From positions 1 through 64,000 of the forward strand of contig JAVYOA010000002.1 of the NCBI GenBank assembly GCA_038734945.1: 64,000 nucleotides of DNA. The letters run 5' to 3'. Every line of letters starts with the position of its first letter. Positions within the stretch are counted from its first letter, which is position 1. Made by a program: the position numbers. Below are positions 34,736 to 40,700 of the stretch, piece by piece. Source of the DNA: Fervidicoccaceae archaeon. Lineage in GTDB: Archaea > Thermoproteota > Thermoprotei_A > Sulfolobales > Fervidicoccaceae.

Positions 34736-37700
34736 GGCCCCATCGTTTCATAGAAAAGGTGAAAGAAATGTCTGAATACAAGGGAAAGAAGAGGCCGATC
34801 GATGTAATCAAGATTTCAGATGCTGAAATACCAATAACGGAAGATCTATTGAAGATACTGAAAAAATATGTGATGACCCAGATGACACTTGAGGAACTTG
34901 CTAGAGAGCTTGGTCTGGAAAGTTGGGAGAAGGCATATGAGTTCATCAAAGCCGTGCCTGCCTGGCTGATATGGACTCCGTTCACGATGTGGGAAATAAC
35001 AGAGTGATTTTTGACTTGGTAGTTGACGGCAAAGGTGGAGGCTATCTGTCATCGCTATCAGAAGCTTTGAAAAAGTATGAAATTCCCAAGGAGAGCGCTT
35101 TCATTGTTTTTAATGTCATCCAGAAGCACCCGAACAATCCTTTTATTACGCTAGTCAGCATCATTCTTTCCCAGAACACCAGTGACAGAAATGCTATGCT
35201 AGCTCTTGAGAGGATGGAAAAATACGGAATGACATCGCCGGAGGCTATATTGAAAGCTGGATACCAAAAAGTACTTGAAGCTGTTTATCCGTCCGGAATG
35301 GGCAAAATAAAAGCGAGAAGAATTCTTAACATATCCCAAATTGTCTTAGAAAATGGGGATTTTCTGGAAAAGGTCTGCGAGTTGGGGGAAAAAGGAAAAG
35401 AGCTTCTAATGCAGCTTGAAGGCGTTGGTTTAAAGACGGCAGATGTCTTCATGATTTCCTATTGCAATTATCCTTCATTTCCAGTCGATAGGCACATTGC
35501 TAGAATTACGGAGAGAATTGTTGGAAGAAAGATGAAGTATGAGGAAATTTCGAATTTTTGGAAGGAGAAATTGGGAGCATCTGACTATAAAATAGCGCAC
35601 ATGAAGCTGATAGCTATTGGAAGGGATATTTGCAGAAAAAGAAACCCGAAGTGCGGAATGTGCCCGCTCAGGGAATTCTGTGCTTCGAAGAGGGGGTGAA
35701 AGTCACATAGAGGAAATCAGAGGTATTCTAATAACAACAAGAACAAACAGAGAGAGAAGTGCAGAAAATGAGCTTGGAAGCTTGCTAATAAGCAGAGGAA
35801 TACCCTTCAGGATGGGGGCCGAGCTTGGTAATGGAGCAGTCCTCTTTTCAACAGAATTTCCATTTAAAGCATATAGGGCAGTAATTTCTTCTCTGCTCTC
35901 TGAACCGATGAGAGTTTATCCTCTTGTTAAGCTGAAGGACCTGGAGAGAATTCTATCATTGGTGAAAATAGATAAGATGAGATGCTATTTGAGGAAAAAA
36001 ATGGAAATCTGCAATGATATTGAGAATTATGCAAGGAAAATAATTGTAGGTAAGAATTTGGATAATACTCAGAGCTCTCTACATGTGATGCTGCACATAC
36101 AGGGATTGGGAGTATTTTATGGATATTCCCCCATTCCAAGAGATTGTGAGAGGTACGAAATGATTTTAAAGATGAGCAACCTTCGGGGATTCTGTTCTTC
36201 ATATGCAGATAAAGTATCAGCCTTGCTGTAAAGAGGAGAAATGGCGGCGGGGCCCCGCTCTTGAAAAGTAGCGGGGGGTGGATTCGAACCACCGACCTCG
36301 GGGTTCCTCCGAGGCCTCAGGCCCCTTATGAGCTTCGCGGGTTCGGGGCTACCGCCACTGCTTTATATGCATGGAAAGGATTAAAAGGTTTTACTATTTG
36401 AGAACTGTGTCATTCAAAACAGATTCAGCCCATTTCCTTCCATAGAACCTTGAGACTTCCTCGAAATTTTCCTCTACGAAAATCCTGAGGGCTTTTCTGC
36501 TCAGGACATCTGCTGCTTCGTTGTTCTCCCTTGGAATCCACTCGATTTTATATGACTTGAAATTTCTGAGAAGATTGATAGATTTGTTGTAAAGGGGGAT
36601 CAGCCTGGGTGCCTTTACTCTGTATTTGCCAATGAGTTGCTTGATTACGAGCTGGGAGTCTCCTCTTATGGTAATATCTTTTTCAGAAAGATCGCTTTCA
36701 ATAATTAGCTCCAGCCCTCTTATCAGAGCTGTGTACTCAGCAACGTTGTTTGAAACATTGTCTCCTCTAAATCCAGCACCTACAATTCCAAATTCTTCTT
36801 TCAGAACCTTTTTATTCTCGAAGATGACAACGCCGTATGTAGCTATCCCTCCAGGATTGATAGGCTCACACAGACCATCAAAATATAAAAGGAGACCCAA
36901 GCATTTCCACCTTAGAGCTTATAAACCGCAGTGTTTCTCTGCTTCAGCATGGGCAGCTTCCTTCTCACTTCTTCTATTTCGGAAACTTCTATGGTGATTT
37001 CTCTGTATTTTTCCCCTACACCAAGATCGTATATTACTTCTCCCATTGGACCTATGATGGTACTTCTTCCTGTAAAATTCTTTCCATACTGATTTACTAT
37101 AGCTAAGAATATTGTGTTCTCATGCGCTCTGGCCCTCCCCAATACATGCAGAATTTCTTCCTTCATGTCTCCCCTATACCAACCAGAAGGAACGATCACG
37201 AGCTCAGCACCTCCTAGGGCATAAGTTCTGAATAGTTCTGGAAACCTTATGTCATAGCATATTGCTACTGAGATTTTCGTGCCTTTCAGCTCGATTATTG
37301 AAGATGGTGCGTTTCCCGGAAGCATGAATTCGGATTCTCTATAGTCGTAAGCATCAAAGAGATGAGCTTTTCTATATCTCAGCAGAATTTCTCCTTTTGG
37401 ACTGAAAATCACTGCTTCATTATAGACCTTTGGTTTAGAGGCAGGAGTGAAGAGCGTTGCTAAGATGTGGACGCCTAGTTTGCTTGCCAATTCTTTTAGT
37501 GAAGAAGCAAAAGCTCCATCCAATTCTTCTGCCATCATATATATTCTATCTGGTTCATCTCCTGTAGGATTGTACATGAAATACTCTGGAGTAATAATGA
37601 GATCTGCTTCCCTCAAGTTTATTATATTATTCAACTTTTCTATGTTTTTTGCCTTATCCTTAGTGCTTTCCATCTGTACTATGCCAAGAGTTATACTTCT

Positions 37701-40700
37701 ATTTTTCATTTTTATTCCCCGAGGAATGTTCAAAGCTTATTTTTAATTTGATCACTAAGAAAAAATCCTCGAGAATGTATAAATATTATTTGGAAAGCAT
37801 GGAGTCTGATGTCCTCTCTCTCATAAAATATGAAACTTTTAGGTTGTAAATAAGCTAGTAGGGAAATACTTATTATTCCCATCCGATAGAGAAAAAGTTG
37901 TCATAACATAAACGGAAGGTATGAATTTTGAACGAAGAAAACGAATCTGAAAGAAATGTAACAAAAAAAGTTATGGAGCTAAAACAAGGCGAAAGCTCCA
38001 TAACAATAAAGGGAAGGGTTCTTGAAGCAAACGAACCAAAAACCATAGAAACGAAGAAAGGGACAAGAACAATAAGTGAGGCAGTTCTAGGCGACGAAAC
38101 TGGTAGAGTGAAGATGACATTGTGGGGAGATAAGGCAGGAAGCATTGAGGAAGGACAGGCTGTGAAGATAACGAACGCATGGACCACTGGATATAGAGGG
38201 AAGGTTCAACTGAATGTTGGGGCTAGCTCAGAAATAACTCAAATTGGAGATGAAGAAGTTCCCAATGCTGAGGAGATCCCCGAATCAGAGCCAGCAGCTC
38301 CTATGGAAGAGAGGAGGGGAGGCTTTGATAGGAGAGGAGGAAGGCGAGATTACAGACAAGGCGGTGGCTTCAGAAGAAGAGAATGGTGAGCTGCTAAATG
38401 AGCTATGCGGAAATAAAGGAAAAGAGATTTATGAGAAAGGGAGAAGAAGCAGGAACGAATAACGAGAACTTCTACATTACAGATGAATCTAATGTAACCT
38501 ATGAGCTATCTGCAGCTGTCTATTATGTCTGGAAGCTTGCTGATGGTATCAAGACAGTTGAGGAAATAGTTAAGCAAGCCAGTTCTGAGCTGAATATGCC
38601 AGAAGAAGAGCTTCAAGAACCAATAGCTGTTATCATGCTCAAGCTGCTCGAAAATAATCTTGTTTCAGAAAGCCTTGAATAAAAATATATAAAAACCCTT
38701 GGCCTAATTTTTTTATTGGCGGGGAAAAAAAGCGGGGTAGGGCAGCCAGGTAGCCCGCGGGAGGTGCGTGGGCTACCGCCCTATGATTTTTTCCAAAAAC
38801 AGAAAAAATCTAGAGCTTCTGAACTCTTATAGCTCCAACCGGACAAGATCCGGCTGCTTGTACGGCGCATTCATAGAGATCCTCGGGTATTTCTCCTTCT
38901 GAAAGTGAATCCGTCAAGTTAGTGGAGTACTTATCCACAACTCTGTTTTTGCCGTTATCGCTTCCAAGAACGAATACTTGCGGACATACTGTGGGAGCTA
39001 CACCACATGCTATGCATGTATCTCTGTCAACTGTTACCTTTACTTTTGCCATTGAGTTCACCCAGATTATTTTTAAACTCGTTATATTTAAATATGCAAC
39101 AATTGTTCCGAAAGTTCACATTTAAAAGTAATATCTTTCTTAGAAAAGGGATTTTTGGAAAGAGATCTATTTTGAATTGATTTGGCAAACGAGTCTCTAG
39201 CATAAAGTATTTAAATAGAATATAGTTGCAGAGAAGAGCTATTTGTTGAATAGAGTATTCTCAAGATTTTTCAAGAATTTTATGTCTCCAGCTGTCGATA
39301 TAATGACGCCGCTAACAAGATCTTCTATTTTATCTAGCACATTCTTAACGGTTGAAGCATCATAGCTCGGCTGGGAAATTCTCTCTATTATGCTCAAGTT
39401 CTTCTCTGTTTTTATTATGATATATGGATAAAGCTCTATCTTCAATTCTCTGCCTCTTTCAGAAATTCTCTCGAGCTTTTCAATTTCTTCCATAGTCATT
39501 CTGAGGATCAGGAATTTTTTGAAGCCCAGTGATAGTCTCTCCAAAATTTTTTGCTCATCATATCTCATGCTTATAATTGCTCCCAGCTTTTTTTCCAATT
39601 TGTAGTTTTTTGCCAGGGATAGGGCCTCTTCGGTAGTTATCTGGCTTTTAAATCCTCTCTCATCCTTCTCACCGGAAGTAACAAAAACGGCATCAATCCC
39701 AGTTAGATTAGCTGCCGAAACAAGTGAAATGAAGGAAATTGGGTTGAGATCGCTCAGCCTAATATGAGAAAATATTTCAGCTTTGGGACACTGTTGCTTT
39801 AAAATGCTGCCTATGACAATGGAGTTTGCTGAGGGGATGCTGAGTGGAGATTCAGGAATGTCCACTCCTGAGAAGATTGATTTCTCCTCACATATGAGAG
39901 AGTTTGCCTGCTTTAGTCTCTTTTCCTCCTTTCCTAGCTCAAATGATAATTCGGCAAAAAGCTTCAAAACTCCTTCACCTTTTCCTGTAATGTGCTACAC
40001 GTTTTTTGTGTAAGAAAGTATAGATATGAAATGCTTAAAAAGCTCATTATATAAGATACTAAGACTCAAGCAAGGAGGTCATTGAGGTAAAAGAAATGAA
40101 GGTTGTTCTTAGCTTTTCCGGCTCATTTCCAAGAGACGAGGGTGTCGCAAAAATTCATTCTATGAGAAAATCAGGCGAAATAGATGATACATCATTCATT
40201 GACAAAATAGCAACAAAGGAGCTGAAGCTGTTGAATTTGCTTGAAGCTCTTGGCTTCTCGCAGAGCACTGATGGAATGCTATGGTCGGATGATATAATCA
40301 ATCCAGTTGTTTCCATGTCAAATGTAGGAGTTAATGGACTAGTAAGATTCTTCGATAACAATTTCTTTCTAAGAGCCCCCATTGTTAAAGAAAGTATATC
40401 GTTCAGGGAGGGAGAATATATTAATTGGATAATAAAGATCAGAGAAAAATTGAAAGAAAAGAACAAATTAGAGCTCAAAGTTGCATTTCCCGGTCCAGCT
40501 ACACTTTCTCTCTTCTCTCAGAATAGCTTCTATCCTTCAAGCAAAGATCTAGTAATTGCTTGGGGAGAGAGCTTCCTCTTTCCCTTGATAGAGAGGTTGA
40601 AAAAGGAGGGATTTTCCACATTTGAGATTCATGAGCCAGCCATGACAAGCAGGAGAACTAGCAGAGAAATGAAGCAGGCTGCTTCTGAGGAATTATCGAA

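Follow-up and report, generated by a model that had tools for sequence, protein, structure and literature searches.

Split tRNA genes described to date

Whether tRNAs started out as halves or were divided late is an old question to which split tRNA genes are relevant. That tRNA halves can be of recent splitting, adjacent and inverted has already been described, as set out in the excerpted text of Chan et al. 2011 (PMC3218864), on which the comparisons with tRNA-Asp, tRNA-Lys and Nanoarchaeum equitans below are also based. The split tRNA-Asp(GUC) gene of Thermosphaera aggregans and Aeropyrum pernix resembles the locus presented here in the closeness of its halves, a promoter of the 3' half (a promoter-like box here), a GC-rich joining stem and the late-splitting reading given to it. 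In T. aggregans, the halves lie on opposite strands and are split and inverted with respect to the intact gene of a relative, as here. However, the tRNA-Asp gene is split at 37/38, its halves are convergent and 160 nt apart, and the relative's gene is intron-free, whereas the present case concerns an initiator split at 30/31, with divergent halves, four genes between them, an extra intron in the 3' half and two traceable inversion borders. Staphylothermus and N. equitans have a split tRNA-Lys(CUU) that is also divided at 30/31, but it is another tRNA, with halves on the same strand at least 4.5 kb from each other, or far apart. The split initiator of N. equitans likewise consists of two transcripts, but it is split at 37/38, with halves 32 kb apart, in a different phylum. 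The tri-split tRNA-Gly and shared halves of Caldivirga maquilingensis (excerpts of PMC4390854 and PMC4033280) recall a shared tRNA-Gln half in the present genome and a three-piece initiator gene in a relative (G009), but involve other tRNAs in another order.

A split initiator tRNA gene is a rare but already known kind of gene. The first-pass annotation of this DNA had presented as new the derivation of a split gene caught in the act, which, according to the same excerpted text, is already in print for tRNA-Asp and tRNA-Lys (PMC3218864). No report of this split initiator case was found in the papers searched. What the case adds is an essential initiator tRNA whose split can be followed back to a rearrangement of which both borders are known.

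Anatomy of the split gene

The window, a 64,000-nucleotide stretch of a contig of the hot-spring Fervidicoccaceae archaeon (G000), contains the initiator tRNA gene in two halves, which lie 2.4 kb from each other on opposite strands (Table 1). The 31 nt of the 5' exon correspond to tRNA positions 1-30 plus one additional D-loop base. The whole 3' half, including its leader, occupies 36356-36269 on the minus strand, and its leader junction, CCCGCGAA followed by G, is letter-identical to the cis introns of relatives. The places of the halves given in the first-pass annotation hold; their borders required correction, as the 5' exon runs to 38761 rather than 38760, the leader starts at 36356 rather than 36369, and A73 is at 36269.

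Table 1. Features of the split initiator tRNA gene and the proposed inverted block
Feature	Position	Strand	Description or basis
Promoter-like BRE/TATA box, 5' half	38683-38698	+	PWM score 11.6
Outer 5' arm GGCGGGG	38718-38724	+	7-bp complement; pairs with CCCCGCC past the 3' half
5' exon	38731-38761	+	Acceptor 5' strand, D arm, positions 27-30; 100% identical to uninterrupted gene of G017 (31 nt)
Trailer of 5' half	38762-38780	+	About 19-20 nt; helix arm GGGCTACCGCC at 38770-38780
T6 run, likely terminator of 5' half	38787-38792	+	Sequence; T-runs equally placed in G001 and G002
Promoter-like box, 3' half	36375-36400	-	8 nt past RNase H-like stop codon; PWM score 7.6
Leader of 3' half	36334-36356	-	23 nt; helix arm GGCGGTAGCCC at 36356-36346, then CGAACCCGCGAA
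Middle exon, positions 31-37, anticodon CAT	36327-36333	-	Sequence and joined-exon fold
22-nt intron, canonical 37/38 place	36305-36326	-	Hairpin, GGAG/CUCA helix and bulges, by eye
3' exon, positions 38-73	36269-36304	-	A73 at 36269; 97% identical to G017 over 37 nt
Outer 3' arm CCCCGCC, then GCCA and T-rich run	36242-36252	-	Complement of outer 5' arm
Inverted block	36394-38682		Four genes by Pfam; gene order in relatives
RNase H-like gene, inverted block	36394-36900	-	Pfam
C-N hydrolase (nitrilase) gene, inverted block	36912-37733	-	Pfam
Ssb-like OB gene, inverted block	37928-38389	+	Pfam
PqqD-like gene, inverted block	38398-38682	+	Pfam

Identity of the joined tRNA

Archaeal initiator tRNAs are marked by A1:U72, G29-31:C39-41, purine11:pyrimidine24 and the anticodon CAU. 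The exons, joined by script, give a 74-nt RNA that ARAGORN classifies as tRNA-Met(cat) and that matches this whole list: it has A1:U72, G29-31:C39-41 and G11:C24, and all 21 of its stem pairs are Watson-Crick. As in other archaeal split tRNAs, separate pieces yield one full cloverleaf. The joined RNA differs at 1-4 of its 74 positions from the uninterrupted genes of six relatives.

BLAST with an intact initiator gene gave no match in the genome outside these two places, and neither G000, which is 99.95% complete, nor G002, a second species of the genus, contains an intact or second initiator gene. The locus is thus the sole initiator-type gene of the genome, as had been proposed. It had also been reported that Rfam sees no tRNA at either half-gene, which was confirmed, and ARAGORN called none there either. 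The other two CAT tRNAs do begin with G1, and counting the split initiator completes the CAU set (elongator Met, Ile2-like and initiator). A third ARAGORN 'Met(cat)' call, at C4:22843, was rejected as a tRNA-Thr(TGT) with a D-loop intron.

Pairing of the halves and proposed processing

The perfect 11-bp complement claimed between trailer and leader is exact (GGGCTACCGCC/GGCGGTAGCCC). It is a direct repeat in the DNA, yet the RNAs are complementary because the halves lie on opposite strands. Perfect 11-nt repeats are not rare by themselves, three others being listed within 2.7 kb; between the 20-nt trailer and the 23-nt leader, however, 200,000 shuffles that kept composition gave an 11-nt match 48 times. 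This GC-rich complement adjoins the junction and extends to 12 bp in G002. Cofolding of the halves gave -84.0 kcal/mol, compared with -62.5 +/- 4.1 for 200 shuffles, and the binding gain was -17.8, compared with -6.5 +/- 3.0 (best -15.8) for 300 random genomic 87-mers. The outer 7-bp arms are kept in G002 and most relatives, and covary in G004, G009, G021 and G022. The junction at 30/31 folds as a relaxed form rather than the canonical hBHBh', with letters matching the cis introns of the five relatives folded. By eye, neither a canonical bulge-helix-bulge register at 30/31 nor one built from the outer arms fitted.

Promoters were scored with a PWM built from 41 tRNA upstream regions of the genome, against a background of 3000 random 70-mers. 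The score of the 5' half was reached by 0.1% of the random sequences and exceeded by 8 of the 41 tRNAs. That of the 3' half is modest, being reached by 3.5% of random 70-mers (p about 0.035) and exceeded by 27 of the 41 tRNAs; its box, AAAAC(C)TTTTAATC, is kept in G002. One raw RNA run, of which about 3% was read, gave 0 matching reads, and matches among the RNA contigs of X11 comprised short conserved exon parts and one 210-nt piece (38529-38737), possibly DNA; neither result bears on expression.

The genome encodes two EndA paralogues (PF01974) and one RtcB (PF01139); the two EndA proteins are predicted to make up a splicing endonuclease of broad specificity. The locus is very probably a split initiator tRNA gene with inverted halves whose products are joined as RNA. 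The 5' half would be a unit with its own promoter, exon 1-30, a 19-nt trailer and a T-run, and the 3' half a unit comprising the leader, exon 31-37, an ordinary 22-nt intron and exon 38-73. Three helices would hold the two RNAs together: the leader/trailer helix of 11 bp, the acceptor stem of 7 bp and the outer helix of 7 bp. The splicing endonuclease would then cut after G30 and before G31, the junction used in cis by relatives, and also take out the 37/38 intron, and RtcB would ligate the exons.

Conservation in the genus and family

The expectation that the genus shares the split is borne out by G002, where both halves lie on opposite strands, 2.5 kb apart. In G001, of the same genus, the 5' half alone was found; its contig stops within the nitrilase gene, and the 3' half was not found in this 87% complete assembly. 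A 13-mer at G001:C6 considered as the 3' half lies within a coding region and was rejected as a chance match. The exons are identical in the three species while the flanks diverge. Between species whose neighbouring proteins share only 50-95% identity, conservation covers the trailer, leader, outer arms and promoter box as well as the exons.

Sister genera had been said to retain an intact gene. This applies to three other genera (G004, G005, G006), which have a short 30/31 intron with the same junction letters, in agreement with the proposed split site. In a fourth (G003, G007), the break is a different one, at 37/38, and a gene for a 463-aa ATPase separates the pieces.

Gene order and the inversion model

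In G004 and G005, the un-inverted order Ssb-PqqD-tRNA-orf35617-EndoIII is found, and in G004 a plus-strand RNase H gene adjoins a minus-strand ferredoxin gene, as the inversion model predicts. In the present genome, the partners of both adjacencies are swapped, and the genes are oriented as an inversion would leave them. In the ancestor of the genus, the inversion would have broken the 30/31 intervening sequence at one end and parted the RNase H-like gene from the ferredoxin gene at the other. The 3' half would then have been expressed immediately, by read-through from the RNase H-like gene or from the AT-rich 3' flank of that gene.

In most outgroups searched, no orthologues of the nitrilase and RNase H genes turned up, so that G004 is the one genome that supports the far end of the block; the nitrilase gene may have been part of the inverted block. 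The RNase H-ferredoxin adjacency occurs in one of the three outgroup genomes with matches, where it lies 140 kb from the tRNA, so that more than one rearrangement separates the genomes. The gene orders themselves fit one inversion. The helix arms of this genus are unlike the short hairpins of G004-G006 and are like those of long interruptions that carry genes in other families. The ancestor in which the break occurred was therefore probably of the long type and may already have had an inner promoter of its own.

Interruption at 30/31 across the order

The initiator gene is interrupted at 30/31 in 50 of 301 genomes of the order, at least 15 of these 50 having a long or inverted form. Six genomes carry a LAGLIDADG-type gene between the initiator halves, and in G009 the gene is in three pieces. 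LAGLIDADG_3 matched the intervening ORFs in 6/6 cases, below the Pfam curated cut-off; the second ORF of G009 scored above it. The ORFs contain the motif FLAGVIDGDGT, and a structure model (pLDDT 88) matched PI-PfuI, bI3 maturase, I-Tsp061I and I-DmoI in Foldseek; a PDB sequence-profile search with the family gave no usable match. By motif and predicted fold, they are of the LAGLIDADG homing endonuclease type. Archaeal rRNA introns, such as that of I-DmoI, also carry a LAGLIDADG-type gene in sequence that the splicing endonuclease removes (excerpt of PMC4496867), whereas the ORFs described here, which occur in relatives only, interrupt a tRNA gene and run on the strand opposite the 5' half.

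The chances appear evenly balanced that the 30/31 site is, in this order, the home of a mobile LAGLIDADG-type intervening sequence with an inner promoter. Such a sequence would make two transcription units of an intron-containing gene, which rearrangements could then separate or invert without harm, at least three times (this genus; a clade of family f3, with one three-piece member; G200 of f11), giving a natural intron-to-split series. Among the relatives, this one gene occurs intact, as adjacent halves, inverted and in three pieces, which makes the late-splitting path and a homing-endonuclease role testable by comparative genomics and tRNA sequencing.

Alternative interpretations

The halves might be dead remnants of a broken gene, the working initiator gene being absent from the assembly, since the genome is a 9-contig bin and tRNA genes can escape detection. 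This is very improbable given the completeness of the genome, the lack of another copy in G000 and G002, exons unchanged in three species despite diverging flanks, and the conservation of complement, promoter box, T-run and outer arms. Slightly less probable still is an assembly error, inversions being a possible assembly artefact, or a reversible DNA switch by which part of the population would regain the intact gene. The same order recurs in G000, G002 and, in part, G001, and contigs from another study's DNA run bridge 36200-36498 and 38735-38850 with unchanged letters. Those contigs contain no alternative joint at the halves, although contigs drop rare variants, and no inverted repeats were seen at the two inversion borders.

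A different origin of the split gene is a stronger contender, somewhat short of an even chance. In the ancestor, a long mobile sequence with a LAGLIDADG-type gene, as in G153, G268 and G018, may have lain between neighbouring halves that were each transcribed on their own, so that the inversion, or several rearrangements, only relocated halves that had become independent before. The arm GGGCTACCG(C)CC matches GGGGCTACCGTCCC of G010, G153, G135 and G268, from three other families, and not the G004-G006 hairpins; however, this likeness may be D-arm mimicry, as GGTAGCCC occurs in both. A TATA-like box lies 25-40 nt before the leader in 8/8 long or inverted forms checked, and the ORFs between the halves in six genomes are homologous. 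Against this, no remnant of a LAGLIDADG-type ORF was found in the present genome, and the nearest genera have short introns.

Other split tRNA genes in the genome

Two further tRNAs of this genome are encoded in pieces. For tRNA-Gln, two 5' halves (C3, C4) use one common 3' half (C9), and the halves of tRNA-Lys(CUU), divided at 30/31, lie side by side. These split genes support the reading of the locus as a split initiator gene.

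Structure of the split initiator tRNA gene

The initiator tRNA(CAU) gene of this genome is a real split gene, encoded as two halves 2.4 kb apart on opposite strands. Joining the exons by coordinates with a script gives a 74-nt RNA that ARAGORN identifies as tRNA-Met(cat), in which 21 of 21 stem pairs are Watson–Crick and the cloverleaf is the minimum-energy fold. This RNA carries the initiator features A1:U72, G29-31:C39-41 and G11:C24; six relatives whose gene is uninterrupted differ from it at 1-4 of the 74 positions. An uninterrupted relative gene, compared by BLAST with all 9 contigs of this genome, which is 99.95% complete, has only two matches, the two halves; neither ARAGORN nor Rfam calls a tRNA at either place. 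Of the remaining two CAU tRNAs, one is an elongator Met tRNA with an intron and one a near copy of tRNA-Ile(GAU). The placement of the halves in the first-pass annotation holds, with two ends corrected by one base and the leader start moved from 36369 to 36356. Both borders in this genome are spanned by contigs from another study's DNA run.

Coordinates of split tRNA genes and associated ORFs
Feature	Location	Strand	Description
5' exon	38731-38761	+	Archaeal initiator tRNA, first 31 bases: AGCGGGG (acceptor strand), D arm, CGGG (anticodon stem)
Trailer after 5' exon		+	AGGTGCGTGGGCTACCGCC; TTTTTT six bases further on
3' half leader	from 36356	-	GGCGGTAGCCC CGAACCCGCGAA
3' half after leader	ending at 36269	-	GCTCATA, 22-nt insert, then ACCCCG...CCCCGCTA
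Outer helix, before 5' exon	38718-38724	+	GGCGGGG
Outer helix, after 3' exon	36242-36252	-	CCCCGCC
LAGLIDADG-type family	L037 5456-6577, L068 242-1363, L058 69-836; L070, L071, L069	- (first three)	~370 aa, between initiator tRNA halves
G007 initiator tRNA broken at 37/38	L034 (G007:C58) 1717-3406		1.6 kb with ATPase_2/DUF234 gene on other strand; 16-bp trailer/leader complement
G009 three-piece initiator tRNA	L058 (G009:C25) 33-64, 2116-2088, 1312-1299	+, -, -	Breaks at 30/31 and 59/60
tRNA-Gln 5' halves, this genome	C3:24362, C4:17898	-, +
tRNA-Gln 3' half, this genome	C9:274216-274294	-
tRNA-Lys(CUU), this genome	C9:427908-428137	+	Adjacent halves at 30/31, ~155 nt between exons

The trailer and leader share an exact complement of 11 nt. 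An 11-nt repeat alone is not rare within 2.7 kb; between the short trailer and leader, 48 of 200,000 shuffles reach it. Cofolding the halves yields -84.0 kcal/mol versus -62.5 ± 4.1 for shuffles, and both the acceptor stem and the leader/trailer helix form. The fold at the 30/31 junction is a relaxed bulge-helix-bulge, not the canonical form, and its junction letters, CGGG/AGG...CCCGCGAA/GCUC, are identical to those of relatives' cis introns. Two EndA paralogues and RtcB are encoded in the genome. The split initiator tRNA is most likely trans-spliced.

The flanks of the two halves form a 7-bp outer helix. Such a helix (7-10 bp) brackets the initiator tRNA gene in the window and most relatives, and its arms covary in G004, G009, G021 and G022. 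After the 3' arm come R-CCA and a T-rich stretch, and the whole resembles a second acceptor stem built from the primary-transcript ends.

Expression signals

With a promoter weight matrix built from 41 ordinary tRNA genes of this genome, the box of the 5' half scores 11.6 (equalled by 0.1% of random 70-mers) and that of the 3' half 7.6 (3.5%). The latter is kept in G002, another species of the genus. The stop codon of an RNase H-like gene of the same orientation lies 8 nt before it, so that expression may also come from read-through. A weak C/D-box sRNA-like match inside the Ssb-like gene (sR46, 38246-38291(+), 21.8 bits, below cut-off) is probably due to chance.

Gene order and origin of the split

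Within the genus, the two halves of G002 lie on opposite strands, 2.5 kb apart, with a helix of 12 bp between them; in G001 the 5' half is present, with the same neighbours as far as the contig end. In three other genera (G004, G005, G006) the gene is in one piece, interrupted at 30/31 by a hairpin intron of 25-44 nt and also by the 37/38 intron; two of them have a T-loop intron as well. The un-inverted order in G004 and G005 is Ssb-PqqD-tRNA-orf35617-EndoIII, orf35617 being the neighbour of the 3' half, whereas the order here is EndoIII-orf35617-3' half, RNase H-nitrilase-Ssb-PqqD-5' half, ferredoxin. In G004, RNase H(+) adjoins ferredoxin(-), with synteny to the window on the ferredoxin side. 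Two old adjacencies have therefore been swapped for two new ones, oriented as in an inversion, which most likely made the split gene. In G004 the RNase H/ferredoxin block and the tRNA are 140 kb apart, so further rearrangements also took place.

Repeated splitting across the order

This lineage is one in which the initiator tRNA gene was split repeatedly. In G003 and G007, which belong to a fourth other genus of the family, the sequence continues through the anticodon with no 30/31 break, and the interruption is at 37/38, where an ATPase gene (463 aa) on the opposite strand separates parts with a 16-bp complement. The helix arms of the present genus are like GGGGCTACCGTCCC of G010, G153, G135 and G268 (three other families) and unlike the hairpins of sister genera.

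Among 301 genomes of the order, pattern scans found 50 with a 5' exon ending CGGG/AG. Matching these exons manually to the 3' junction gives 31 short cis introns, eight long forms on one strand (183 nt to 1.57 kb), seven opposite-strand forms (G000, this genome, and G002, G200, G091, G009, G252, G198) and, as first sorted by hand, four with the 5' part only. One of the last, G262, turned out to have a short intron whose junction is a variant. In each of the eight long or inverted forms examined there is a perfect complement of 10-16 bp, and a TATA-like box precedes the leader; G091 has a compensatory change within the helix common to G009, G198 and G252.

Six genomes from four families (G018, G153, G268, G269, G091, G009) have homologous LAGLIDADG-type ORFs between the initiator tRNA halves, antisense to the 5' half in all six; none of this kind was found in the present genome. 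They carry the motif FLAGVIDGDGT. LAGLIDADG_3 matches are weak for 6 of 6, and a confident model (pLDDT 88) matches LAGLIDADG enzymes. Two copies are each broken into two ORFs.

In the three-piece gene of G009, each later piece has its own TATA-like box, LAGLIDADG-type ORFs follow pieces 2 and 3, and ARAGORN identifies the joined sequence as tRNA-Met. G021, of a sister genus, has the same introns in cis.

Other split tRNA genes

Chan et al. 2011 (PMC3218864) describe adjacent and inverted split tRNA-Asp, tRNA-Lys(CUU) split at 30/31, a Nanoarchaeum initiator split at 37/38 and a permuted Thermofilum initiator; the parts consulted of the 2014-2015 reviews (PMC4033280, PMC4390854) give no further split initiators. 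No published account of a split initiator tRNA in this lineage was found in the literature searched.

In this genome, tRNA-Gln is assembled from two 5' halves (UUG and CUG, on different contigs) and one common 3' half, split at 37/38, whose leader carries a complement to each trailer, the two overlapping. The 5' and 3' parts match at separate places in 7 of 7 other family genomes, which indicates split tRNA-Gln there; in G004, inspected by eye, the arms covary. The gap between the tRNA-Lys(CUU) halves contains a T-run and a TATA-like promoter box, and the halves share a 12-bp complement. Both ARAGORN and Rfam overlook what is probably a tRNA-Trp(CCA) gene, containing long intron(s), at C9:44116(+).
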